Assembly: GCA_949300345.1 (NCBI GenBank)
Contig: CASGDR010000001.1
Span: 328,695 to 392,694 of the forward strand
DNA length: 64,000 nt
Reading direction: 5' to 3'
Origin: an uncultured bacterium
Lineage (GTDB): Bacteria; Bacillota_I; Bacilli_A; RFN20; CAG-826
This document shows, one piece after another, positions 15,920 to 52,338 of this stretch (its first letter is position 1; the number at the start of each line of letters is the position of its first letter). The translations under genes and the position numbers were made by a program. The notes under the pieces were generated by a model. The model did not search any database. It saw nothing but the letters and a program-made list of their open reading frames with translations, and was not told the DNA's origin.

Positions 15920-16222
15920 ATGGAACCGATGCAACAGTATGTGGCCCTATATCGGGCACTTAGGTCATTGTCCGAAAAGGATTATGTCCAGGACCTTGAC
16001 CGTTTTCTGGATAGCATGCATCCCCAAATGATCTTTATGGGCCAAGGCGATGATATCTATATGAGTTTTATTGGCCTACAGAAAGAGACTCCTTTTCCCT
16101 ACCCATTAGCGTTGTCTTTTCTAAAAAGAGAAGCTCCGGAAAAAGTCATCTCCATGTTCTTGGATCGGTTTCCTACCACAGAGGATTATGAAGCGTTCAT
16201 TCAATGCAACCCTCAGGATTGA
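15920..16222 (+). CDS. hypothetical small protein
   Basis: 100-aa ORF with normal GC; TATAAT 10 nt upstream of the ATG. No homology recognised. Confidence 0.3.
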   Translation: MEPMQQYVALYRALRSLSEKDYVQDLDRFLDSMHPQMIFMGQGDDIYMSFIGLQKETPFPYPLALSFLKREAPEKVISMFLDRFPTTEDYEAFIQCNPQD

Positions 16223-16693
16223 TATTTGAGTTTTGCAGTTACGCGAATTCACTTAACAGTCTGATTGAATAGATCCGATTCCAATCCCAGACGGATATAA
16301 AAAAGTCTGGCCCACCCCGATAGAGCAAGATGGACTTTTTTCTTCGTGAATGCCTGACACAACAAAAGTGAATCGTATCACGCAAATGTTTTTTCTTTGC
16401 AAGTTGTGAATTGCTACCCGATCTTTGAAATGAAATGTTTCTAGGTCATACCCCTAGCGAACGAACAACACCAACGATGGAATAGCTCTGCCTGGAGAAA
16501 AACCAAATCAAACTTTTTAAGAGAAATGGCATTGCTCACTAATTTAGTAGACTGTTTGCCATTCGTACCATTCGTCAAACTGGACCCATTCAGTGAATTC
16601 AAAGTAGTCAATTACATTTTTCTAAAGCCTCTTTTTTTCGTTGCATCATGTTTCTAGGTTGTGTTTTTCGCTCCATTGTTTGAAAATTAAGCT

Positions 16694-18022
16694 ATGTTCC
16701 AAAGGAAAATTACCGATAGTCTCTTAGCTTGGAGCAAAAGGCACAAACGTTTTCCTATTCTTTTAAAAGGATCGAGAGGTGTTGGAAAGACAGAAACAGT
16801 ATTGGAATTTTGTAAGTCACAGTATCCAAACGTTCTCTATTTCGACATGAATTCCAACGAATCTCTTAGGGATATATTCAATGGTGATATGGACATCGAC
16901 CGTATTGTCGACGCCCTTTCTTATTACGCTAAAGGACAACCTATAATCCCTGGGAAAACCGTCCTTATATTCGATGAAATCAAGGATTGTCCCAATGTTA
17001 GGACCTCATTCAAGTATTTTTCTTTGGATCGCCGTTATGATGTTATAGCTATTTCTTCTTTCTCTGGACTGGGAGCCTATGACAAAAACAACCAAGGTTT
17101 TGTCTCAGACTATCAGAAGGAAATGACAATGCATCCAATGGATTTCGAAGAATTCCTTTGGGCATCTTCAATCAACCCCAGACAAACAGAAAACCTACGT
17201 CTCTGCATGCAAAATGAAGAGCCTGTACCTGAATATCTCCATCAAGAAATGCTACGCCTCTATCGCATGTATATGTTAGTTGGGGGCATGCCGGAGGCCG
17301 TCGAAACCTTTATTCAAACCCGAGATCTTGATAGCGTCCTTGCCTATCAGAATAAGGTTCTAGACCAGCTTAGATCCGGGTTCGGATATAGGCTTTTGAA
17401 AGACGGAAAACCCAAACTTAATCCTTCATTCCAGCTGGCTACTACTTCCGTATTTGATTCAATCGATGCCAATTTATCCAAAACCTACGGTAAGTTTGGC
17501 TTCAAACAATTTGAATTTGACAATAGGACCGTCCATGAGGCCGTTACCTGGCTTTTGGACAGCATGGCCATCAATGTGTCTTACAATCTGCAATCCCTTG
17601 AAATACCTTTGGAAGACCAGAAACTACCCAAACTTTTCAAACTATATTTCCAAGATATCGGTCTATTCTCCTCAACTCTTAATGAGTTGCACAGGCAAGC
17701 TGTCTCAAGGGGAGATACTTACCACTCCGGAGTGTCTATTTTCGACCACGTGGTAAGCGATGCCTTTTCCAAATCCGGGAAGAATCTTTATTACTTCAGA
17801 AGACCTACCGGTTTGGAGATAGATTTCGTTGCTGAATACCAAGGCAAAACAACTCTGATACAGTCAAAACCAAGAAACGGCAATTACAAATCCCTAAGGA
17901 CCATCCTTGAAGACGGTAAGTATCAGGTAGATTCGGCCATAAGAATTGGGGAAAAGAACCTTGCAAGGAACGGAAAGATCCTAGATATACCTTATTACTT
18001 GGTCCCATTCCTTGCCTGCTGA
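16694..18022 (+). CDS. AAA+ ATPase (AAA_14 + DUF4143-type, COG1373-like)
   Basis: Walker A GSRGVGKTE, Walker B VLIFDEI, 442 aa. The gene and its 470-bp upstream region have clearly lower GC than the flanks. Confidence 0.65.
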   Translation: MFQRKITDSLLAWSKRHKRFPILLKGSRGVGKTETVLEFCKSQYPNVLYFDMNSNESLRDIFNGDMDIDRIVDALSYYAKGQPIIPGKTVLIFDEIKDCPNVRTSFKYFSLDRRYDVIAISSFSGLGAYDKNNQGFVSDYQKEMTMHPMDFEEFLWASSINPRQTENLRLCMQNEEPVPEYLHQEMLRLYRMYMLVGGMPEAVETFIQTRDLDSVLAYQNKVLDQLRSGFGYRLLKDGKPKLNPSFQLATTSVFDSIDANLSKTYGKFGFKQFEFDNRTVHEAVTWLLDSMAINVSYNLQSLEIPLEDQKLPKLFKLYFQDIGLFSSTLNELHRQAVSRGDTYHSGVSIFDHVVSDAFSKSGKNLYYFRRPTGLEIDFVAEYQGKTTLIQSKPRNGNYKSLRTILEDGKYQVDSAIRIGEKNLARNGKILDIPYYLVPFLAC

Positions 18023-38680: not shown

Positions 38681-39157
38681 ATGAAAAAACCCAAGCGTTA
38701 CGAGGTACTGGACCGCCCTTCTTACCATAGCGGGGAAACGGGCGACACATACGGTGGAACACTGTTCATTTCCTTTGTGCTTTGCCTACTTGCCATAGCC
38801 TTCTACTTCTTGGCTTATGTCAGTCCGATTGCCCTACATGAGGCCATCCTCATCAAGGAACAGGGCGGAGTCTCCACCTTTGAGGAATTCAGCCAGCTGG
38901 TCGGAACCGGGATTTTGTCCTTGGTGGGCTGCTATCTTGGCTACTATGTAAGCGCGGCGGCGGGCTATATCCTACTAGGGCTATTGGGGCTAGGGCTCCT
39001 ATTCACCCTAATAGCCACCATACTCTGCTTGGTTTCCTTCAGATCCTATCGGAAAGGAGACATCGTTTTTGCGGGGATATTCCTTTTCCTTGCCCTCTTG
39101 TTCTTGATACTATGCGGGTTCAAGGGATGGCTATACCTCGATAGTTTCGTATTATGA
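38681..39157 (+). CDS. hypothetical membrane protein
   Basis: 158 aa, 4 TM helices. Confidence 0.4.
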   Translation: MKKPKRYEVLDRPSYHSGETGDTYGGTLFISFVLCLLAIAFYFLAYVSPIALHEAILIKEQGGVSTFEEFSQLVGTGILSLVGCYLGYYVSAAAGYILLGLLGLGLLFTLIATILCLVSFRSYRKGDIVFAGIFLFLALLFLILCGFKGWLYLDSFVL

Positions 39158-40590
39158 AAGTCGGCATTTCCAAACAATTCATCGATCTGCTTTCGCAGTC
39201 CAAGGGGCACGCCCTAAGCGACCAAAGGGCCAAAGCCCGGCTCTTGGGCGACGCCTTCAACATCCTCTTCATGATCCCGGGATACGAAAACGGCAGGCGC
39301 CACAATTTCCAAAACGGCTATGAGGTCTATATGGGCCCGGGCTCCAGCCGCATCATCGTCTATGTATCCTCCAAGGAAAGGATCATCGTGAAGGCTGATA
39401 AGCACGATACCCTATACGATGGGGCCAGCTACCTCGTGGCCGAGAAGCCGGAGGCCTATGTCTATGCCGAACTTTCCGAGCTCGCGGCCCAAGGCTTTGC
39501 CCCCAAGCATGAAGATAAGCTCCTCGATGCCTTGCTTTCATTCGGCTTCCCCTATCCCTTCGTCATGCTGCTGGATAGGTTGGATGAAGGAATCAGAAGC
39601 CAAATCGTATTGAAGGAAAAAATCGACGGGGCCCTTGAAGTCCAAGCCAAACTCGAAAAAGCCAGGAAGGAAGCCACCAGGCTATATTCCCAATCGGTGG
39701 CCATGGCCTCGTTCCAGGAAAAGGAAAACGCGGCCCAGAAGGCCCGTGCCAAGCTCTTGGCCCAGCAGAAAGAAGAAGAGAAGAAGATCGAAGTCACCAT
39801 CATCGAGCCCGTCGAAGAGGTTATTGTCCAGACTCCGGCCAAGAAGGAAGAACCCTCCAAGGCCCTGCCCATCCAAAAAACCAAGGAAGAAAAGATCGTG
39901 GTCGACCCGGCCGCTTTGGAAAGGGCGATCCTTCGTTCCTTGGAAGAGAATTACAAAAAGCAAATCGAGAAATATAGCAAGATCAAAAAGGTGCCGCTGC
40001 GCCACGCGATACTTGCACCCAACGAATTCATCATCAAGTACACCGACCTCGGCGACTTGTTCAAGAAACTCGAAAGAAGGGTCCGCCGCTCGGGCTTAAA
40101 GCAATCGCGCGAAGGCTGGCTCATCCTTTTGGCCACCACGGTGCCCGAAGACCTCTATGATATTCTGGATAGCCATTATCCGGGCAAGGTCAAATACACC
40201 GATGATCCCAAGAAGGGAAAACTCGAGACGGCCATCATCATCAAGAAGGCCAAACCCGAGGACATCGAAGAAGCCGATCCGGGAGTCAAGAAGGTCAAGA
40301 CCAAGACCAAGCAATTCGAAGCCACCATCAGGGAATCTCTCGAGCAAGACGACGAGCTTCCCGACTTCCTGAAGTTCTTCCTAGACGAGGACGAGGAGGA
40401 AATCGAAAGTTCCTTCTTCGAAGAGGAAGAGGAAACTGCCCCCATCGAAATAGGGCCCAGCCATCCCAAGCATTGGCACTGCTACGTCTGCGGGAAGAAG
40501 AAGCTCTACCACGATGAGCCGGCCAAGACCATTACCCTCACCAACGGCAAAACGGCCTACCTATGCAAGAAACACAAGAATGCCCTCTAA
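39154..40590 (+). CDS. hypothetical Lys/Glu-rich protein with a C-terminal zinc ribbon; possible RelE/ParE-like N-terminal fold
   Basis: 478 aa. The N-terminal roughly 95 aa are GYEVYMGPGSSRIIVYVSSKERIIVKADKHDTLY. The middle is low-complexity K/E/A-rich coiled-coil-like. The C-terminus is HWHCYVCGKKK ... YLCKKHKNAL (CxxC...CxxH). Confidence 0.45.
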   Translation: MKVGISKQFIDLLSQSKGHALSDQRAKARLLGDAFNILFMIPGYENGRRHNFQNGYEVYMGPGSSRIIVYVSSKERIIVKADKHDTLYDGASYLVAEKPEAYVYAELSELAAQGFAPKHEDKLLDALLSFGFPYPFVMLLDRLDEGIRSQIVLKEKIDGALEVQAKLEKARKEATRLYSQSVAMASFQEKENAAQKARAKLLAQQKEEEKKIEVTIIEPVEEVIVQTPAKKEEPSKALPIQKTKEEKIVVDPAALERAILRSLEENYKKQIEKYSKIKKVPLRHAILAPNEFIIKYTDLGDLFKKLERRVRRSGLKQSREGWLILLATTVPEDLYDILDSHYPGKVKYTDDPKKGKLETAIIIKKAKPEDIEEADPGVKKVKTKTKQFEATIRESLEQDDELPDFLKFFLDEDEEEIESSFFEEEEETAPIEIGPSHPKHWHCYVCGKKKLYHDEPAKTITLTNGKTAYLCKKHKNAL

Positions 40591-41387: not shown

Positions 41388-42830
41388 TCAGTTGAGGGGT
41401 CCTAGGACCGGGAGCAAGGCTCCCTTGATGGTATTTTCCTTGGACTCGCGCCCGTACTTATCAACGCTGGCGGCATCGCGCAGCTCATGGGTCAAACAGC
41501 AGGGTCCTCCGATACAGCCGTTGAAGCAGGCCATGCCTTCGATGAAGTTGCCCTGGAGTGTATGGTTCTTCATCTGCATCAGGGCCGTGCGGCATCCGTC
41601 AAGTCCGGAGACGTTGACCGGTTTGTAATCAAAGTCCTCGATGCCCCTTTCCTTGAGGGCCTGGGCCACCGCGTCGCGAAGTCCGCCCGAGCGGGCAAAG
41701 ATACGACCGAAGTAGGAGGCATTGTCCAAAGGCTTTTCTTCCAAAGTGGGCAGATCGATCTGATAGGCATCGATCAGGGCCTGGAGTTCTTCGAATGTGA
41801 TGATGCAGTCGACATAGGGAGCGTTCTTGTTGGGCTCGAACTGCTCCATCTTCTTGGCGATGCAGGGACCGCAGAAGATGGTCTTGCAATCCGGATCGTT
41901 CTGCTTGAGCCACTGGGCAATCCTGGCCATCGGCGAGAGATTGTGGCTGATCTTTTCCTTGAGTTCGGGGAAGGAGGTTTCGATGTAGTGGACGAAGGCC
42001 GGGCAGCAGGAAGAGGTGAGTTCCCCTTTCTCGGCGAGCTCCTTGGCTTCGTCATAGGCGGTCATGTCGGCGCCGAGGGCGGCTTCCACGACTTCGTGGG
42101 CCCCGAGCAACTTGATGCCGGTGACGACCTGGCCGAGCTTGGCATAGTGGAATTGGCTGGAAATGGACGGGGCCACGATCATGTAGGCCTTGCATTTGCC
42201 GGCTTTGCAATCCTTGAGGATGTCGATGCAGTTTAGGATATAGGACTTATCGACGATGGCGCCGAAGGGACAGGCATAGGAGCAGGCCCCGCAGCGGGTG
42301 CACTTGCCCTCGTCGATTTCGGCGATGCCGTCGGGCCTAGCGTGGATGGCCTTGATCTTGCAGGAGGCCTCGCAGGGGCGGACCCTCTTGATGATGGCCT
42401 GATAGGGGCAGTTTTTGGCGCACATCCCGCACTGGACGCATTGGCTCTTGTCGATATGGGCATGAAGTTCCGGCCCGAAGCTGATGCACTTCTTGGGGCA
42501 GTTCTGGGCGCAGCGGTGGGCCAAGCATCCGCGGCAGGCATCGGTGACTTCCATCCCGCCGATCGGGCACTGATCGCAGGCCGCGTCGATGATTTCGAGC
42601 ATGTTGGGGTTGTTTTTGTCCCCGCCCATCGCAATTTTGACGCGCTCGGCGGCGATGGCCCTTTCCTTATAGATGCAACAGCGCATCGTGGGCTTGGGAC
42701 CCGGGGCAATGCGCTTGGGGATATCCACGATATCCTCCATCAGGGTGCCCCTATCGTAGGAAATCGCCACTTCCTTGAGAACCCGGTATTTGAGTTCCTG
42801 CACTTTGGTATCGAATTTCGGCTGTACCAT
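41388..42830 (-). CDS. [FeFe]-hydrogenase-family protein (H-cluster domain with N-terminal ferredoxin-like 4Fe-4S clusters, no PAS domain)
   Basis: H-cluster motifs L1 TSSCCPAFV, L2 FCGPCIAKKME, L3 EGMACFNGCIGGPCC. Three N-terminal Cys4 clusters (CDQCPIGG ... CRGC ... C, CVQCGMCAKNCP, CTRCGACSYACP). AGGAGA RBS. Confidence 0.8.
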   Translation of the reverse strand: MVQPKFDTKVQELKYRVLKEVAISYDRGTLMEDIVDIPKRIAPGPKPTMRCCIYKERAIAAERVKIAMGGDKNNPNMLEIIDAACDQCPIGGMEVTDACRGCLAHRCAQNCPKKCISFGPELHAHIDKSQCVQCGMCAKNCPYQAIIKRVRPCEASCKIKAIHARPDGIAEIDEGKCTRCGACSYACPFGAIVDKSYILNCIDILKDCKAGKCKAYMIVAPSISSQFHYAKLGQVVTGIKLLGAHEVVEAALGADMTAYDEAKELAEKGELTSSCCPAFVHYIETSFPELKEKISHNLSPMARIAQWLKQNDPDCKTIFCGPCIAKKMEQFEPNKNAPYVDCIITFEELQALIDAYQIDLPTLEEKPLDNASYFGRIFARSGGLRDAVAQALKERGIEDFDYKPVNVSGLDGCRTALMQMKNHTLQGNFIEGMACFNGCIGGPCCLTHELRDAASVDKYGRESKENTIKGALLPVLGPLN

Positions 42831-42841
42831 GTTTAGTCTCC

Positions 42842-44017
42842 TTAGAAATAGGCAACCTTGACCCTCTTGCCCATGAGTTTGAGCTTCGAGCTGAGCTTCT
42901 CGACGATCTGCATCTTCATATTGAAGCCGATATCATAGCGCGGGTCCTGATGGGCCGCGTTGATCGCACATCCGACATAGAAATCGATGTCGGTGGCTTC
43001 TTCGAAGAGCATCTTGGCGATGCGGCTGGCCCCATCCTGGCGGTAGGCCCACTCGAAGTATTTGTTGTTTTGTCCCAGATAGTCGTCGGCTAGGGACAAG
43101 ACCCGGTTGAGGGTGATGACCCCCTCTGTGGTCAGATCCACCCCTTCGATGGTCGAAGTGGGTGGGATTTCCCGGTCTTCATAGACCAGGCTTGGCAAGA
43201 CCGGCTTGCCCAGGAAATTGGAGGCAATCTTCGCGGTCGTGCCCCCGCAGACTATATGCTTCCCTTTTTTTGAAAAAAAGAGGGAAAGCATTTTGGTGTC
43301 GTCTTCTTTGTGGGTCGGAGGCCCGATGGCGATGCTCACCTGGCTTCTCTTCCTCAGTTTGATGGCGGCCGAGGTGGTGTCGTCGCCGGGATGGCCGTTA
43401 TAGAGGTCATTGCAGCGGCTGACCACCATGGTCGCGAGGATTTTGGCGGTGAAGGAGGGAGCGTATAGCCCTTCCAGGTAATTGACGATTTCCTTGCGTC
43501 CCCAGCCGAAGTTCAGGGTCTCCCCGACCCCGGCATAAATGCAGCCATCCGACATCGCTAGGATCGAATCCCCGGGATATAGACGGGTCTCGGCGGTCAT
43601 GATTTCCTTACCATCGGTTAGGGTTTTGCGGTAAACGAGGGGGAATTCACGGCCTTCGCGAAGTAGGACCGGCAAGGGATTGTCATAGTTATAGACATAG
43701 GCCCTATCCCCGTCCTTGACCAAGATTACGGTAAAGGTGCAATAGGCGATATTGCCCCTATCCTTGGCCACCGGAAGGGAGGCCACGAGGGCATCGACGC
43801 ACTCCTCGATGGAAAGCCCGGAGGAGACCATCGAGCTAAGGATGGTCGAGGTCAAGGTGGACAAGACCGCGGCCTTGACCCCCGAGCCTAGCCCATCGGC
43901 CAATACCAAGACCTGGGTATCCCCTTCGTCGAGGTATTGGACATGGTCCCCGCAGAGCTCCTCGCCCTTTTTGTTCAAAGAGAGGTAGCCCGCTTCAAGG
44001 ACGCAGTCTTCATTCAT
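42842..44017 (-). CDS. PP2C/SpoIIE-family serine phosphatase with an uncharacterised roughly 170-aa C-terminal domain
   Basis: PP2C motifs CGDHVQ ... VLADGLGSGVKA ... MSDG ... GHPGDDTT. The C-terminal region (GKHIVCGGTTAKI ...) is not assignable. The track start at 44023 is GTG; the ATG at 44017 has an AAAGG RBS. Overlaps the upstream hydS stop. Confidence 0.7.
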   Translation of the reverse strand: MNEDCVLEAGYLSLNKKGEELCGDHVQYLDEGDTQVLVLADGLGSGVKAAVLSTLTSTILSSMVSSGLSIEECVDALVASLPVAKDRGNIAYCTFTVILVKDGDRAYVYNYDNPLPVLLREGREFPLVYRKTLTDGKEIMTAETRLYPGDSILAMSDGCIYAGVGETLNFGWGRKEIVNYLEGLYAPSFTAKILATMVVSRCNDLYNGHPGDDTTSAAIKLRKRSQVSIAIGPPTHKEDDTKMLSLFFSKKGKHIVCGGTTAKIASNFLGKPVLPSLVYEDREIPPTSTIEGVDLTTEGVITLNRVLSLADDYLGQNNKYFEWAYRQDGASRIAKMLFEEATDIDFYVGCAINAAHQDPRYDIGFNMKMQIVEKLSSKLKLMGKRVKVAYF

Positions 44018-45692
44018 CGCCACGGCCTTTCTCCAAAGCCGCCTTCAGCTTGTTGAGGGCGACCTTGGTATCGGCGGCCGATTCGCCTAATAATAGGGCG
44101 ATTTCCTGGACCGCCTTCATGTGCTTGGCAACGACTTCGTCGGCGATGGCGACGGTTTCCTTGGTCTTCTCGTCGGTGGCGATGCGGCGCTTCCTGGCTT
44201 CGGTCACGTCGCGGTAGATGCCGATGAGAATGTGGTATTCCTTGTCGTGGGTGATTGTGAGTTCCGTAAAGCGTCCATAGTCGCTTAGGTATTCTCGCTT
44301 GTTGATGATCGGCGTCCCGTTTAGGGCCAATACGAAGGGTTCGGGATTGAGGATTGAAGCCAAATTGGAATGGATGAGGACGGAGGTGTCCTTGATGTTG
44401 AGCAATTCCCCCATCTTGGGGTTGACCAGCTGCAGGGTCAGATCCTCGCTGGCGACGATGATGCCGTTATTGGAGGAGCTGACGATGGAATTGGAGAAGG
44501 AGCGGGCCTTGCCCATCAGATAAGGCAGGCACATTTCCAGATTGGCCTTGCCGGTGATGACGGCCTTGGCCTTCTCGCGGCAGGTCTTATAGCCGCAGCA
44601 GGCGCAGTTGAGCTCGTCGGCCTTTGAGGATTTGCCGATCTCGTGAAGGACGTGCCTTATCTCTTCTTCCGAGGGTTCGGCTTCGATGACCCCGAGGGGG
44701 CGGAATTCCTTCTTGATGGATAAAGCGGTCTCCTCTTTGGCCTCGAAGTCTTCCTTCCCGGCCGAGCGGACGGTATCCAAATAGGCTTTCAAAGAGGGCC
44801 GTTTGGCATCAATGGCCGGGCCGTTGATGCAGCTGCCGGTGCAGCCGCTCATCTCGATGAAGGCCTTGTGGATCTTGCCCTCCTTGATTCCGTCGAGGGC
44901 GTGGCGGACTTCGTCCATCCCCGAAATCGGAAGATAGACATAATCACTATTCGGGCGGTCCATGGTCTTTAGGATTCCCCCGTCGGTGGGGAAAACCCTG
45001 GCCTTGGATTTGGTAAGGGGCTTAGCCTCTTCGGCTTCGACGGCAATGCCGTCTTCCTCGAGCATCTTCTTCAGCTCAAGGAAGGTCAGCACGCAGTCGT
45101 CATAGCCCTTATAGACATCGATCTCGTCTTTCTTGGAGATGCAGGGCCCGATGAAGATTACTGTATGGCCGGGCTTCCTTTCCTTGATGTCCCTAGCGTG
45201 GGCCAGCATCGGGGAAAGGTAGGGTGCGAGGCAGCCGATCAGCTCCGGATAGTATTTCTCCACGGTGAGGTTGACCGAGTGGCAGCAGGTGGAAATGATC
45301 ACGTCCTTCTCGGCTTTGGCTACTTCCTCGTCATAAAGCCTTTTGACGATGGTAGCCCCGATGGCAGTCTCTTCGGCGTCCTCGAAACCGAGCTGGATGA
45401 GAGCCCGCTTCAAAGAAGCAAAAGAGGCCTCCGGGAAGGCCGAAAGGTAGGATGGGGCCACCGAAGCGACGCAGTGGCCTGATTGGATCAGGCTCCTGGC
45501 CGCTCCGATGTCGTTTCTGATCTTCTTGGCGCCTTGGGGGCAAGCCAAATAGCAACGGCCGCAATAGACGCAGCCGTCCTGGATGATGCGCGCGACCGAA
45601 TCGCGAAAGGCGATCGACTTGGTCGGACACACCCGGATGCACTTGTAGCAGCTTCGGCAGTCAAGCGCCTCGCTGACCAAAGGGTAAGCCAC
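44010..45692 (-). CDS. hydS: HydS-type putative sensory [FeFe]-hydrogenase (ferredoxin-like N-terminus, H-domain, extra Cys4 motif and C-terminal PAS domain)
   Basis: N-terminal 2x[4Fe-4S] (CRSCYKCIRVCP, CVYCGRCYLACP). Variant H-cluster motifs L1 STCCHSV, L2 FIGPCISKKDE, L3 EMSGCTGSCINGPA. Additional CACCGYKTC motif. PAS-like C-terminal roughly 110 aa. GTG start with a GAGGA RBS. Confidence 0.75.
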   Translation of the reverse strand: MAYPLVSEALDCRSCYKCIRVCPTKSIAFRDSVARIIQDGCVYCGRCYLACPQGAKKIRNDIGAARSLIQSGHCVASVAPSYLSAFPEASFASLKRALIQLGFEDAEETAIGATIVKRLYDEEVAKAEKDVIISTCCHSVNLTVEKYYPELIGCLAPYLSPMLAHARDIKERKPGHTVIFIGPCISKKDEIDVYKGYDDCVLTFLELKKMLEEDGIAVEAEEAKPLTKSKARVFPTDGGILKTMDRPNSDYVYLPISGMDEVRHALDGIKEGKIHKAFIEMSGCTGSCINGPAIDAKRPSLKAYLDTVRSAGKEDFEAKEETALSIKKEFRPLGVIEAEPSEEEIRHVLHEIGKSSKADELNCACCGYKTCREKAKAVITGKANLEMCLPYLMGKARSFSNSIVSSSNNGIIVASEDLTLQLVNPKMGELLNIKDTSVLIHSNLASILNPEPFVLALNGTPIINKREYLSDYGRFTELTITHDKEYHILIGIYRDVTEARKRRIATDEKTKETVAIADEVVAKHMKAVQEIALLLGESAADTKVALNKLKAALEKGRGDE

Positions 45693-45722: not shown

Positions 45723-45971
45723 CTATAGGAGCGGGAGGACTTCTTTTTCGAAGACCTCCCGGCAATTGGCGGTGGTAACCCCGGTCACGATCTTGTCCTC
45801 GACCTTGATGGAGACGCCGGCAAAGCCGCACTTGCCGAGGCAGAATGCCGCGGACAGCTTCACGGTGTCTCCCAAGCCGCGGTCGGCTACCTCCTTCTGA
45901 AAGGCTCCGATGACATCATAGGAGTCCTTCAGGTGGCAGCTCGAACCGACACAGATGGCGACGGTTACCAT
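45723..45971 (-). CDS. thioredoxin-like [2Fe-2S] ferredoxin (NuoE/HndA-like small Fe-S protein)
   Basis: 82 aa with the Cys pattern CVGSSC ... (31 aa) ... CLGKC. Its start overlaps the adhE stop. Confidence 0.55.
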   Translation of the reverse strand: MVTVAICVGSSCHLKDSYDVIGAFQKEVADRGLGDTVKLSAAFCLGKCGFAGVSIKVEDKIVTGVTTANCREVFEKEVLPLL

Positions 45972-45972
45972 G

Positions 45973-48594
45973 TTAGTTTCCCTTATAGGCGTTGCGCATG
46001 ATTTGGATCATATCGGGGATCAGGGGCACCTTGGGGTTGGCCGGGGTGCACTGGTCCTCGTAGGCCGCATATGCGAGTTCTTCGAGGTGGGATTCCCACT
46101 GCTTCTCATCGGGGACGAGGGAGCAGAAGTTCATGTCGATGCCGATTTCCTTGCCTAAGGCAAGCACGGCATCGGCGAGGGCCTTGACGCCTTCTTCCGG
46201 AGTGGAATGGGGCAAGCCCAGGGTCTTGGCGATGGCCTGGTATTTGCGGTCGCATTCGTACTCTTCGTACTTGGGCCAGATAGAGAGCTTGCTGGGCACG
46301 GTGCCGTTATAGCGGATGACGTGCGGGAGCAAGATGGCGCAGGTGCGGCCGTGGACGGTGTGGAATTCGGCACCGATCTTGTGGGCCATGGAGTGGGCGA
46401 TGCCAAGGAAGGCGTTGGCAAAGGCCATGCCGGCGATGGAGGCAGCATTGTGCATCTTTTCGCGGGCCTTGGGATCGCTCTTGCCGTTTTTGACGCAGCG
46501 GGGCAGATATTCGAAGACCAGACGGATGGCTTCCAGGGCTAGGCCGTCGGTGTAATCGCTGGCCATGACCGAGGTGTAGGCCTCGATGGCGTGGGTGAGC
46601 ACGTCCATGCCGGTTTCGGCGGTCGACTTGGCAGGCAGGAAGGTAGTGAACTCCGGATCGACGATGGCGATGGTCGGAGTAAGGCTATAGTCGGTCAGCG
46701 GGTACTTCTTGAAGTTGGCCTTGTCGGAAATGACGGCGAAGGGGGTAACTTCGGACCCGGTGCCGGAAGTGGTCGGGATGCAGATGAGCTTGGTCTTCTG
46801 ACCGAGTTCGGGATATTTGAAGGCGCGCTTGCGGATATCCATGAACTTCTGCTTGAGGTCGTCGAAGTTGACTTCGGGGTGTTCATAGAACAGCCACATG
46901 ACCTTGGCCGCGTCCATCGGGGAGCCGCCGCCGAGGGCAATGATTGTATCGGGCTGGAACTGCTGCATCAGGGCCACGCCGCGCTTGACGGTCGTGATGT
47001 CCGGATCGGGTTCGACTTCGCTGAAGAGCTGGTAGGTCACCTTGTTGCGGCGCTGGTTGAGCTCGTCGATGATCTTGTTGAGGAAGCCGAGCTCGACCAT
47101 GGAGCGGTCGGTGACGATGAAGACCTTGCCGACCTCTTTGGCCGAGCGCAGGTACTGGATGGAATTGCGTTCGAAATAGATCTTGCGCGGTACTTTGAAC
47201 CACTGCATGGTGTTTCTCCTTTTGCCGACTTGCTTGATGTTCAGTAGATTGATGGCCGAAACGTTTCCGGCGACCGAGTTATGCCCGTATGAGCCGCAGC
47301 CCAAGGTGAGCGAAGGCAGGAAGGAGTTATAGACGTTGCCGATGCCGCCGAAGGTGGTCGGCTGGTTCCAAAGCACGCGGATGGCCTTGACGGTATCGCC
47401 GAACTTATCGGCCATTTCCTGGTCATGGCAGTGGATGCCGGCGGAGTGTCCGAGGCCGCCGAATTCGAGCATGGCTTCCGAGAGCCTGGTGCCCTCTTCG
47501 ATGCCCTTGACCTTATAGATGGCAAGGACCGGCGAGAGCTTTTCGCGGGACATCGGTTCCTTGGGTCCGACTTCCTTGCATTCCACGACGAGAATGGAGG
47601 TATTGGCCGGGACTTCGAAGCCGGAGTTGCGGGCGATTTCCACGCTGGACATGCCGGCGACGGCGGCGTTGAGCCTCGCGTTTTCGACGCCTTCTTCGCC
47701 CTTGGAAACCCCGAACATGTACTTCTCGAGCTTGCGGGCTTCCTCCGCGGTAGCGATGTGGGCATGGAATTTCTTGAGGTAGCTAACCACGTCCTTGTAA
47801 ATCGGCTCGTCGACGAAGATGGCCGATTCGGAAGCGCAGATCATGCCGTTGTCGAAGTTCTTGGAAATGAGGACGTCGTTGACGGCCCTTTCCACTTCGG
47901 CGGAACGGTCGATGTAGCACGGGACGTTGCCGGCCCCGACGCCGAGGGCGGGTTTGCCGCAGCTATAGGCGGCATTGACCATGGCGTTGCCGCCGGTCGC
48001 CAGGATGGTGGCGATGCCCGGGTGCTTCATCAAGGCGCTGGTGGCATCCATGCTGGGGTGCTCGACCCATTGGATGCAGTTTTCCGGAGCCCCGGCAGCC
48101 ACGGCGGCGTCACGCATGACGATGGCGGCAGCCTTGGAGCATTCCTGGGCCTTGGGATGGAAGGCAAAGACGATCGGGTTGCGGGTCTTGATGCAGATGA
48201 GCGACTTGAAGATGACCGTCGAGGTCGGGTTGGTGACCGGGGTGATGCCGCAGACCACGCCGACGGGTTCGGCGATGCGGGTGATGCCGGTGACCGGATT
48301 GGAATCGATGATGCCGACGGTCTTCAGATGCCTCATGTTGTTTACCACGTATTCGCAGGCAAACAGGTTCTTGGTGGCCTTGTCTTCGAAGCAGCCCCTC
48401 TTGGTCTCTTCGATGGCCTTGCGGGCCAAAATGCCGTGGTGATCGAGGCCGGCTACCGACATCTTGGCGACTATGTAGTCAATTTTTTCCTGGTCGAAGC
48501 TGGCAAATTCGTCAAGGGCCTTCAAACCCTTTTTGACCAGGGCGTCCACTTCGGCCTGAGCAGCCTCGGCCGGGGTGAGTTTTTTCTCTTCCAT
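45973..48594 (-). CDS. adhE: bifunctional acetaldehyde-CoA / alcohol dehydrogenase
   Basis: 873 aa. N-terminal ALDH domain followed by a C-terminal iron-containing ADH domain (GGGSPMDAAK ... iron-ligand histidines). AGGAGG RBS lying inside the 3' end of rex. Confidence 0.9.
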   Translation of the reverse strand: MEEKKLTPAEAAQAEVDALVKKGLKALDEFASFDQEKIDYIVAKMSVAGLDHHGILARKAIEETKRGCFEDKATKNLFACEYVVNNMRHLKTVGIIDSNPVTGITRIAEPVGVVCGITPVTNPTSTVIFKSLICIKTRNPIVFAFHPKAQECSKAAAIVMRDAAVAAGAPENCIQWVEHPSMDATSALMKHPGIATILATGGNAMVNAAYSCGKPALGVGAGNVPCYIDRSAEVERAVNDVLISKNFDNGMICASESAIFVDEPIYKDVVSYLKKFHAHIATAEEARKLEKYMFGVSKGEEGVENARLNAAVAGMSSVEIARNSGFEVPANTSILVVECKEVGPKEPMSREKLSPVLAIYKVKGIEEGTRLSEAMLEFGGLGHSAGIHCHDQEMADKFGDTVKAIRVLWNQPTTFGGIGNVYNSFLPSLTLGCGSYGHNSVAGNVSAINLLNIKQVGKRRNTMQWFKVPRKIYFERNSIQYLRSAKEVGKVFIVTDRSMVELGFLNKIIDELNQRRNKVTYQLFSEVEPDPDITTVKRGVALMQQFQPDTIIALGGGSPMDAAKVMWLFYEHPEVNFDDLKQKFMDIRKRAFKYPELGQKTKLICIPTTSGTGSEVTPFAVISDKANFKKYPLTDYSLTPTIAIVDPEFTTFLPAKSTAETGMDVLTHAIEAYTSVMASDYTDGLALEAIRLVFEYLPRCVKNGKSDPKAREKMHNAASIAGMAFANAFLGIAHSMAHKIGAEFHTVHGRTCAILLPHVIRYNGTVPSKLSIWPKYEEYECDRKYQAIAKTLGLPHSTPEEGVKALADAVLALGKEIGIDMNFCSLVPDEKQWESHLEELAYAAYEDQCTPANPKVPLIPDMIQIMRNAYKGN

Positions 48595-48595
48595 C

Positions 48596-49234
48596 TTAAT
48601 CCTCCTTCAGGATATCCCTGATGCGGTGAGAGAGGACCGCAAGGGAACTAGCGAGATTGACGTCTTCGACGAAGACGCCCGCCGGAGCCGCTATGTGGGT
48701 CGGAGCAAAGTTCCAGATTCCGACCGCACCCCCGGCGATGGCCTTGTCCGCTACGCTTTGGGCGTGGGATGCAGGCACGCAGATGATGGCGATATGGGCA
48801 TTGAGGCGGGGCATCATTTCCTCTAGGCGCGACACATCCATGATGGCCTTGCCATTGATTTCGATTCCGATCTTATCGCTGGAGGAATCGAAAGCGGCGA
48901 TGATGTCCAACCCCATGTCGGCAAAACCCGGATAGTCTAAAAGGGCCTGGCCCATGCGGCCGACCCCGATGAGGACTGCGGTCGTCGAATCGCGGTAGCC
49001 CAGAAACGTCTCGATGTCGTCAATGAGTCCCTGCACTTCGCGTCCCCTGCCGGGTACACCGGAGTTGTTGGTGACTGCAGCCAAATCCTTTTTGACCTGC
49101 TCCTCATTATAACCTAGTCTAGAGGCTATCAGTCTACTGGAAGCAAAAGCGCGGCCCTCGTTGCGGAGTTCCTTGAGGATCTTCAGGTAAATCGGGTAAC
49201 GCGTCAGTTGGTTCTGGGAGAATGACTTTGTCAT
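48596..49234 (-). CDS. rex: redox-sensing transcriptional repressor Rex
   Basis: Winged-helix N-terminus (RYPIYLKILKEL) and a Rossmann NADH-binding domain (VLIGVGRMGQALLDY ... GIWNFAP). The track start at 49264 is TTG; the first ATG is 49234. The stop lies 1 nt before the adhE ATG. Confidence 0.8.
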   Translation of the reverse strand: MTKSFSQNQLTRYPIYLKILKELRNEGRAFASSRLIASRLGYNEEQVKKDLAAVTNNSGVPGRGREVQGLIDDIETFLGYRDSTTAVLIGVGRMGQALLDYPGFADMGLDIIAAFDSSSDKIGIEINGKAIMDVSRLEEMMPRLNAHIAIICVPASHAQSVADKAIAGGAVGIWNFAPTHIAAPAGVFVEDVNLASSLAVLSHRIRDILKED

Positions 49235-49267
49235 AGCAACTCGGTAATTTTTTACCGAAAACAAATA

Positions 49268-50883: not shown

Positions 50884-51774
50884 ATGATAATCATCAAATC
50901 GATAGGCGCATTCTTCGCAAGGATATGGAGATGGATCAAGGAAACGGCCTGGGTCCAGCCCCTTTTGATCGTTGGGGCGGTCTTCGCCGTCATCTTCTCG
51001 ATCCCCTCTTTGACCTCATGGATTAACTCCATGGCTTCTTCCGGGGACGGTTCCTTCTATTCTGATGCCCGCAGGGCCAAGACCCTCGAAGGCGAAACCC
51101 GCTGGGCCGCCGAAGATAGCGACGACCCCTACTTCTCCGTCGCGGATTCGATGACCGACCTCCTGGCCGCCGCCATCAACGAAACCGATAACGAAGCAGC
51201 GGTTGCCGCCGTCAAGGAAGAGTTCGGCACCAAGTTCTTCCTCCTCTATGTGGGTGAAAACTGCGAAGCCTGCCTCAATGACGAAGGCGGATTCGAAACC
51301 CTTTACGACAATTGGAAGACCAACTTCATCCCCACCGATGGCCGCGACCTGAACATCTACACCATCGACTCCGATGAAATCAGCAACAACGACGAAGACT
51401 ACGAAAAGACCCCCTACGATACCGCCTTCAAGCGCTATCTCGATAACTGGGCCGATGACTTCTTCGAGCCGCTAGGCAGCTACCTCTATGAAACCACCCC
51501 CTACAGGGTCAACGCCTCGATCGAGGATTCCGAATACACCTGGTTCAGCAATGCCGAAGTCCAGGGCGATTCCATCTTCTCGACCCCGGTCACCATCCTA
51601 TTCGACTTCTCCGATGAGGCCATCGCCGAAGAACGCGTGGCCGAAGCCGTGTTCACCAGCCTGACCGGCGACGGGAACTACGAGAAGGCCGACTTCCTAC
51701 TGAAGATGTGGAACCATCTCGACAGCGATATCCAGAATATCTTCTCGAACGATTACCGCACCTCTTCCAACTAA
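50884..51774 (+). CDS. hypothetical membrane-anchored acidic protein
   Basis: 296 aa. N-terminal TM/signal anchor, then a strongly acidic Asp/Glu/Tyr-rich extracytoplasmic domain containing CEAC. GGAG RBS. No family recognised. Confidence 0.4.
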   Translation: MIIIKSIGAFFARIWRWIKETAWVQPLLIVGAVFAVIFSIPSLTSWINSMASSGDGSFYSDARRAKTLEGETRWAAEDSDDPYFSVADSMTDLLAAAINETDNEAAVAAVKEEFGTKFFLLYVGENCEACLNDEGGFETLYDNWKTNFIPTDGRDLNIYTIDSDEISNNDEDYEKTPYDTAFKRYLDNWADDFFEPLGSYLYETTPYRVNASIEDSEYTWFSNAEVQGDSIFSTPVTILFDFSDEAIAEERVAEAVFTSLTGDGNYEKADFLLKMWNHLDSDIQNIFSNDYRTSSN

Positions 51775-51801
51775 TTGCCCGCCTCGGGTTATAATCAAAG
51801 C

Positions 51802-52338
51802 ATGAAGAAGGGACCAGCATTCCGGATCGAAGGAAACAAAGCCGTGCATTTGGTCTACGGCAAGGATTCTTCGGTTGAAGGAATCGAAACGGTGCCTTCT
51901 TTTTCTATCTGTGATGGCAACTCTCTAGCGATTGCCACCACTACCGATCCGGTGATCATGCTGGTTACCCCCGATAAGCTCTCAATCGGCAGATACACCG
52001 ATGAAGAACTGCTGAACAAGAAAGCCTATGAGGATTTCAAAAGCTTAGTAAAAGATCCCGAGCAGTGCGAGGTCCACATCTATGCCGGGACCGTATTTGC
52101 TTCCCGCCCCATCAAGGAGGGAGAACTCGATGCCTTGAGGTCGATTGGGTTGCTCGAGGCCAGCAAGATTTCCCAAGGGAAGACCTACCTTGACCTACCG
52201 GTATTGAGCCTACTTCAGATGCGCCTGCTTGGCATCGATATGAAAAACATCTATCTGGACCGGATAGACCCCAGAAATGAAAACTCCCTCTTCGTCGAGG
52301 GAGGGACCAACATAGTCCAGATTCTCAGGAAGGCCTAA
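51802..52338 (+). CDS. hypothetical protein
   Basis: The track ORF starts on TTG at 51775; the first ATG at 51802 is preceded by TTATAAT 6 nt upstream (leaderless-type). 178 aa with no motif. Its stop overlaps the convergent coaD stop. Confidence 0.35.
   Translation: MKKGPAFRIEGNKAVHLVYGKDSSVEGIETVPSFSICDGNSLAIATTTDPVIMLVTPDKLSIGRYTDEELLNKKAYEDFKSLVKDPEQCEVHIYAGTVFASRPIKEGELDALRSIGLLEASKISQGKTYLDLPVLSLLQMRLLGIDMKNIYLDRIDPRNENSLFVEGGTNIVQILRKA

Follow-up and report, generated by a model that had tools for sequence, protein, structure and literature searches.

It is a recognised open problem how putative group C (sensory) [FeFe] hydrogenases transduce the H2 signal (PMC11376134). The closest described systems are the hfsABCD operon studied in Thermoanaerobacterium (PMC5707799, PMC11837493) and the H2-regulated adhE-hydS-hydA2 cluster of Ruminococcus albus, which includes a phosphatase subunit (PMC6776011). 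Deletions of hfsC and hfsD in Thermoanaerobacterium have the same phenotype and both genes are required for the phenotype of an hfsB deletion (PMC5707799); overexpressed hfsD is sufficient alone (PMC11837493). The hfs operon controls how Clostridia of the rumen and gut, as well as thermophiles engineered for ethanol production, divide their output between ethanol, acetate and H2 (PMC6776011, PMC5707799, PMC11837493). Here we describe a related operon in a 64-kb stretch of DNA from an uncultured bacterium of the CAG-826 lineage (contig CASGDR010000001.1; the whole stretch of 64,000 nucleotides is called the window), with emphasis on the C-terminal domain (CTD) of its PP2C phosphatase, HfsC.

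The operons of T. saccharolyticum and T. thermosaccharolyticum and the R. albus cluster share a common logic with the window: a small 2Fe-2S protein, a PAS-containing sensory [FeFe] hydrogenase, a SpoIIE-type phosphatase and a monomeric ferredoxin-type hydrogenase, with adhE and regulators nearby. The window genes lie on the minus strand in the order rex-adhE-hfsA-hfsB(HydS)-hfsC-hfsD, and the run hfsA-hfsB-hfsC-hfsD, together with a neighbour carrying H-cluster, FeS and PAS matches, identifies an Hfs or group C [FeFe]-hydrogenase operon. The window phosphatase is almost certainly an HfsC orthologue. The operon has Rex and lacks the APH/RIO-like kinase and the LysR regulator that most relatives carry; homologues of that kinase and of that LysR were absent from the 64-kb window at E ≤ 1e-4. 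With its nearest relatives it thus forms a Rex-type operon without kinase or LysR. An earlier reading of the sequence without database searches, hereafter the original prediction, had recognised the phosphatase and HydS, and had overlooked the usual kinase, LysR and Rex components. It had also singled out the tail of the phosphatase as a region with no motif that could be placed, and had raised the possibility that it is the partner-binding or regulatory domain conferring specificity on a putative H2-sensing pathway, an interpretation that the present results support in part. The features concerned are as follows.

42842..44023, minus strand: hfsC, PP2C phosphatase
43352..44023, minus strand: SpoIIE/PP2C phosphatase domain of HfsC, residues 1-224
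42845..43342, minus strand: CTD of HfsC, residues 228-393, a predicted Rossmann-like alpha/beta domain with no family assigned

The tail proved to be a domain in its own right. In the list of open reading frames (ORFs) hfsC encodes a product of 393 amino acids, in which residues 35-223 match the Pfam phosphatase domain PF07228 with 60.8 bits (cut-off 25; E 2.2e-16). GHPGDDTT, near which the catalytic motifs had been proposed to end, occupies residues 210-217, and the tail strings quoted at the time, SIAIGPPTHKEDD, GKHIVCGGTTAKIASNFLG, EGVDLTTEGVITLNR and YVGCAINAAH, were all found in HfsC. What follows the phosphatase is a tail of 169 amino acids (residues 225-393, window 42845..43351, minus strand). 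The structure model puts the start of the CTD proper at residue 228 (window 43342); the span originally noted, 42842..43350, takes in residues ~226-393 and the stop codon. Searches of residues 225-393 against Pfam and NCBIfam returned no family even at E ≤ 1. The tail likewise matched no PDB sequence in a single-sequence phmmer search, and a 64-sequence profile matched PDB sequences in the PP2C part only. A GAF, STAS, PAS or SpoIIE regulatory domain, any of which would have made the tail a familiar one, is excluded by both sequence and structure.

The domain is nevertheless abundant and conserved. More than 8000 database proteins match HfsC across the full ~390 amino acids; among the 120 matches listed, PF07228 is the sole precomputed Pfam domain and the few named proteins are SpoIIE-family or serine/threonine phosphatases. 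With the tail alone as query, 965 cluster representatives were recovered at E ≤ 1e-3 from 1.84 billion proteins. Mean pairwise identity among 54 full-length homologues is 62% in the tail versus 56% in the catalytic half, and across 113 operons the mean evolutionary distance is 0.28 for the CTD, 0.35 for both PP2C and HfsB, and 0.27 for HfsD. The tail is shown to be a separate domain, constrained at least as strongly as the catalytic domain. No description of it was found in the literature searched, where papers on hfs and hydS speak of the protein simply as a serine or serine/threonine phosphatase. Operon and phosphatase were already known; the CTD is an accessory domain family new to Pfam, NCBIfam and the PDB.

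AlphaFold2 models both the full-length protein (predicted local distance difference test score, pLDDT, 88; predicted template modelling score, pTM, 0.87) and the tail alone (pLDDT 91, pTM 0.87). In the models the CTD has strands at residues 228-233, 255-259, 275-277, 290-292, 297-299, 345-350 and 387-392, and helices at 239-251, 261-271, 302-316, 322-325, 331-342, 356-359 and 367-383. Its predicted fold class is a generic three-layer Rossmann-like sandwich with alternating beta and alpha elements, to which no specific family can be assigned. Because the last PP2C strand (216-225) passes almost directly into the first CTD strand (228-233), with ~3 residues between them, the two domains look rigidly joined.

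Foldseek comparisons of the CTD with PDB libraries gave nothing at E ≤ 1e-3 (template modelling score, TM, ≤0.42 on the query), and alignments of solved PP2C chains with the HfsC model extend over at most 232 residues. The resemblances that did appear are to Rossmann-like nucleotide- or cofactor-binding domains: the molybdopterin guanine dinucleotide (MGD)-binding domains of Mo/W-bisPGD (bis-pyranopterin guanine dinucleotide) enzymes (FdhF 7qv7_S, FwdB 6s6y_B, FdnG 1kqf_A), the NuoG C-terminal domain, CARF domains (Can2 8q3y, Csm6 8jbc), sirtuins and thiamin pyrophosphokinase. They share 10-15% identity with the CTD over about two thirds of its length and have no sequence-profile link to it, and such matches show fold class, not family membership. 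For the CARF domains the likeness is one of Rossmann-like fold, within these weak matches. Membership in the MGD-binding domains of Mo/W-bisPGD enzymes, as judged by fold together with a multidomain oxidoreductase context, was rejected.

MGS-like domains (MgsA, the PurH N-domain, the allosteric domain of carbamoyl-phosphate synthetase) were considered separately. The CGGTTA sequence after the second CTD strand resembles their phosphate loop, and Foldseek gave E 0.025-0.04 with TM 0.4-0.5. In hhalign, with template sequences entered by hand, CGGTTA aligned in register for two of three MGS-like templates; the probabilities against MgsA and PurH, from the same templates, were 0.3-4%, and membership was rejected. 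Pfam MGS (PF02142) gave no match to the CTD at E ≤ 1, and the CTD is ~50 residues longer than these domains. The likeness may serve as a lead, and we treat it as a resemblance. A Cys-based phosphatase loop (H-x-x-C-X5-K/R) was also rejected: C259 is just 83% conserved and the +6 position varies among the sequences shown.

The N-terminal half of HfsC has the hallmarks of a PP2C fold. Residues D26, D43, D159, D214 and D215, within CGD, ADG, SDG and GDD, are invariant in 54 homologues and by analogy are candidate PP2C metal ligands. This half also contains a family-specific PP2C segment, AGVGETLNFGW (residues 164-174, window 43502..43534, minus strand), in which A164, G165, G167, N171, G173 and W174 are invariant and whose block has a pLDDT of 72; it may be a regulatory or flap element.

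Conservation within the CTD was assessed in 99 representatives covering at least 90% of the domain, drawn from a library clustered at 50% identity. At least 90% conserved are G234, P235, P236, G254, G260, G261, P287, G294, L297, T299, E300, G301, T304, L339, G351, N355 and K386, and positions 262 and 263 are at least 96% Thr or Ser. Much of this set falls in four motifs, each of which directly follows a beta-strand in the modelled secondary structure.

43316..43324, minus strand: GPP (G234 P235 P236), right after CTD strand beta1, 95-100% conserved
43235..43246, minus strand: GG[TS][TS] (G260 G261 T262 T263), where beta2 ends and helix alpha2 has its N-cap
43112..43129, minus strand: TEGxxT (T299 E300 G301 ... 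T304), where a strand ends and helix alpha3 has its N-cap
42959..42973, minus strand: GxxxN (G351 ... N355), after strand 345-350, with G351 and N355 100% conserved

G260 and G261 are 100% conserved, position 262 is Thr in 78 and Ser in 18 of the 99 representatives, and position 263 is Thr in 81 and Ser in 15 of them. GG[TS][TS] is a candidate phosphate-binding loop or phospho-acceptor site. TEGxxT is 95-100% conserved in the representatives and invariant in the stand-alone forms described below. In the 54 fused homologues the invariant polar residues are D241, H256, D296, E300, D330, S333, D345, H358, Q359 and K370. Two of these, H358 and Q359, belong to a conserved loop (355-364) with a pLDDT of 56-64 in both models; this loop could become ordered upon binding something.

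The genomic distribution of the domain is informative. The context sample comprised 160 loci, 80 from reference genomes and 80 from metagenomes, each neighbour count being limited to loci with enough flanking DNA; a metagenome scan seeded with stand-alone forms served as a second context sample. PP2C and CTD are in a single ORF in 156 of the 160 loci. In L092, L095, L127 and L131 the ORF that matches the CTD has no match to PP2C; L095 and L127 end at a contig edge, and in L092 the PP2C is a separate ORF just upstream. The gene hfsB lies directly upstream of the phosphatase in 130/131 loci, and hfsA upstream in 114/116. Downstream, hfsD adjoins in 116/136 loci and lies within 2.5 kb in 125/136. 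Homologues of adhE are found upstream in 63/111. A ~250-amino-acid APH/RIO1/Bud32-like kinase sits between adhE and hfsA in 76 of 116 loci (for example L024:3371-4135, L172:6031-6765 and L169:454-1224). Many operons are headed by one and the same LysR-family regulator. Rex also recurs, either directly upstream of adhE, as in the nearest relatives of the window (L001, L002, L004, L012, L015, L016, L027, L031, L049), or between LysR and the kinase. Even distant fused members, with tail identities of 33-41% (Coprococcus catus, a Synergistaceae genome and the P0299 lineage), follow hfsB. Some of these lack hfsD, and loci L169 and L178 are without HfsD. The fused CTD is thus found only in phosphatases that follow hydS.

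Stand-alone forms are rare. About 14 clusters are genuine stand-alone CTDs, versus thousands of fused ones, and genomic context confirmed this status for P0348, P0357, P0329, P0352, P0392 and P0393 only. Most short hits (~160-178 amino acids) are gene fragments, many of them labelled partial by their source or located on very short contigs; one apparent stand-alone form, P0316, was rejected as a truncated fused gene, the PP2C tail ...PGDDTT being present upstream in frame. Among the matches listed from the seeded metagenome scan, there were fused genes and no new stand-alone loci. The five clusters with readable surroundings fall into two arrangements. In the first, LysR is followed by a CTD of 160-168 amino acids and an HfsD-type hydrogenase (L083-85, L176-177). 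In the second, the order is LysR, kinase, an HfsA-like 2Fe-2S protein, a CTD of 167-171 amino acids, NfnA and NfnB (L086, L172-175). These forms keep GPP, H256, CGGTTA, TEGxxT and GxxxN, and have lost W325, the DGAS segment and AHQ. The check proposed at the outset, whether the domain is limited to phosphatases beside hydS, gives a yes for the fused forms and a no for the stand-alone genes, which have neither PP2C nor HydS.

The stand-alone genes adjoin an HfsD-type hydrogenase or NfnAB. The CTD can therefore function without PP2C and HydS; it is an autonomous module and not merely an appendage that regulates PP2C. HfsB accompanies PP2C and never a stand-alone CTD. This pairing of HydS with PP2C, from which the CTD is separable, points to PP2C as the half that takes in the HydS signal and to the tail as the output or integration half.

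What the CTD does at this step is proposed from its conserved loops. We tentatively favour a self-contained ligand- or phosphoryl-binding output module that would gate or target PP2C, and give this reading a probability of about 40%. In Rossmann-like folds the loops that follow beta-strands usually line the ligand crevice, and phosphate-binding loops cap helix N-termini. The CTD is proposed to bind a phosphoryl-bearing ligand because its four conserved loops follow strands and GG[TS][TS] caps a helix; the ligand probably carries a phosphoryl group, as would a nucleotide or phospho-metabolite. The conserved residues resemble a crevice for a small ligand or phosphate more than they do a surface for protein contact. 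That no protein partner is common to all contexts also favours a function contained within the domain, such as ligand binding; the constants are the Gly-rich CTD loops and an adjacent ferredoxin-dependent redox enzyme that has its own regulator. In such a mechanism the H2 signal would enter through the HfsB PAS domain and pass to PP2C, and the CTD would bind a phosphoryl-bearing small ligand whose occupancy gates or targets the adjoining PP2C. The H2 signal would in this way be combined with a metabolic signal before reaching HfsD or the transcriptional regulators.

Several points weigh against this proposal. The CTD has no sequence link to a known ligand-binding family, either in Pfam or in hhalign comparisons with MgsA and PurH (0.3-4%). 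The sharing of one crevice by the four loops is read from the order of secondary-structure elements, and the ligand itself is a putative one. The conserved Thr/Ser pair would suit a phospho-acceptor equally well. Finally, the genetics were done on the Thermoanaerobacterium HfsC and would bear on the CTD only if that protein carries it. The readings weighed here, as ligand-binding module, phospho-acceptor, docking domain, or enzyme or cap, are not mutually exclusive.

The alternative that survives best, though we consider it somewhat unlikely, is that the CTD is the phospho-acceptor of a partner-switch-like module. The APH/RIO/Bud32-like kinase would mark it, probably at T262 or T263, PP2C under H2 control through the HfsB PAS domain would erase the mark, and the phospho-state of the CTD would decide engagement of HfsD, NfnAB or the LysR or Rex regulator. 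The presence of the kinase upstream in most of the fused loci in which it could be scored, and again beside the stand-alone CTD of the NfnAB type, is what such a cycle would predict, as are two adjacent positions at which Thr and Ser are interchangeable; a gene for a STAS-type substrate was not seen in these operons. However, an operon kinase is lacking in the window, in its nearest relatives and in the LysR-CTD-HfsD loci, and GG[TS][TS] is equally conserved there, although this comparison of loci with and without the kinase does not discriminate between the readings. Kinases of the APH family frequently have small-molecule substrates, four invariant Gly/Pro-rich loops are more than one acceptor residue would explain, and the ~3-residue linker makes it uncertain that the CTD could reach the PP2C centre in cis. 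That the CTD is the phospho-acceptor and effector of a previously unrecognised pathway of this kind, in which the kinase writes, the HydS-controlled PP2C erases and HfsD/NfnAB or LysR/Rex respond, is likewise unlikely.

We regard it as unlikely that the CTD is purely a docking domain, without ligand or modification, tethering the phosphatase to HfsD, to the FeS/PAS region of HfsB, to HfsA or to LysR, with the stand-alone CTDs as adaptor subunits of HfsD or NfnAB. Tight synteny and apparently coupled translation are consistent with docking: the hfsB stop and hfsC start overlap by 14 nt, and hfsD starts 11 nt past the hfsC stop, preceded by AGGAG. The frequent position of hfsD directly downstream, the stand-alone CTD immediately upstream of an HfsD-type hydrogenase, the shared phenotype of hfsC and hfsD deletions (PMC5707799) and the low-confidence loop 355-364, which may order on binding, point the same way. 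No single partner, however, fits all contexts. L169, L178 and the NfnAB type have no HfsD; the LysR-CTD-HfsD type has no HfsB, HfsA or kinase; and the window has no LysR. The universally conserved residues, G, P, T, E and N in loops, are also atypical of a protein interface. Co-evolution with the hydrogenase-like neighbours, suggested at the outset as a check, was not decisive: mirror-tree pairs all correlated at 0.86-0.93, with almost no HfsD-specific signal, and the partial distance correlations (CTD-HfsB 0.41, CTD-PP2C 0.34, CTD-HfsD 0.08) are weak values whose significance was not computed.

It is very unlikely that the CTD has an enzymatic role, for example as a second hydrolase or transferase with a small-molecule substrate, or that it is a mere structural cap stabilising PP2C. 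The extra invariant polar residues of the fused homologues speak for this reading, but stand-alone forms keep the Gly-rich loops and not H358, Q359 or the DGAS segment, there is no match to any catalytic family, the C259 loop is not a C-X5-R phosphatase loop, and a passive cap would not persist as a separate gene.

The remaining genes of the window operon are listed here from its upstream end.

48596..49264, minus strand: rex, redox-sensing repressor (Pfam Put_DNA-bind_N and CoA_binding), directly upstream of adhE
45973..48594, minus strand: adhE, bifunctional aldehyde/alcohol dehydrogenase, named from its earlier label and homology and not from a domain scan
45723..45971, minus strand: hfsA, 82-amino-acid thioredoxin-like [2Fe-2S] protein (Pfam PF01257, E 1e-05)
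44010..45692, minus strand: hfsB/hydS, putative sensory [FeFe] hydrogenase of 560 amino acids (Fe_hyd_lg_C 3.4e-43, FeS 3e-08, weak PAS match 0.023)
41388..42830, minus strand: hfsD, monomeric group-B-type [FeFe] hydrogenase (TIGR04105, 510.6 bits, cut-off 450)

The HydS-type identity originally given to the upstream neighbour of hfsC is borne out by the Fe_hyd_lg_C domain, the C-terminal FeS motif and the weak PAS match, the last being stronger in the homologues L169, L178 and L179 than in the window HfsB. Many relatives have two tandem hfsA-like small 2Fe-2S genes upstream of hfsB (for example L007:4134-4652 and L024:4119-4656), and the window has one. In the fused-type loci L029:2-2141 and L072:1590-3867, nfnA-nfnB lies just upstream of the hfs genes; the same pair follows the stand-alone CTD in L086 and L172-175. 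In the Synergistaceae locus L178:9279-12702, which has hfsA-hfsB-hfsC without hfsD, genes for an Hpt protein and for a response-regulator-GGDEF-EAL protein come next on the opposite strand, hinting at a connection with cyclic di-GMP signalling in this lineage.

Elsewhere in the window, a 478-amino-acid ORF without a Pfam match (39154..40590, plus strand) lies just downstream of the operon on the opposite strand; its centre is of low complexity and rich in Lys and Glu, and its C-terminal end, CxxC...C..H, is zinc-ribbon-like. Two consecutive ORFs of 296 and 187 amino acids (50884..52338, plus strand) have no Pfam family at E ≤ 1e-3. The stretch 16001..18000 has a guanine plus cytosine content of 0.41, against ~0.52 in the rest of the window, and could be a foreign insert or an AT-rich gene.

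The fold of the CTD appears ordinary and its function is, at the level of sequence, a proposed one. Even so, the domain offers a testable candidate for how bacterial H2 sensing leads to an output, and it defines a family deserving a profile model, with GG[TS][TS] and TEG as clear targets for point mutants. The second domain of HfsC, together with the kinase, LysR and Rex, provides a concrete parts list for an H2-sensing pathway. Were the phospho-acceptor pathway to prove true, it would supply the missing link from H2 sensing by group C [FeFe] hydrogenases to the control of fermentation.

HfsC also differs from the best-known members of its phosphatase family. Compared with partner-switching systems, no STAS or RsbW-type gene was seen in the hfs operon. 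In the familiar members of the SpoIIE/RsbU/RsbP/RsbX family of PP2C phosphatases the regulatory domains are N-terminal (the RsbU N-domain, PAS and the SpoIIE regulatory domain), and the multidomain Rv1364c of Mycobacterium tuberculosis has an RsbW-type kinase and a STAS domain as its C-terminal partners. Unlike all of these, the accessory domain of HfsC is at once C-terminal, Rossmann-like in its predicted fold, and unrelated in sequence.

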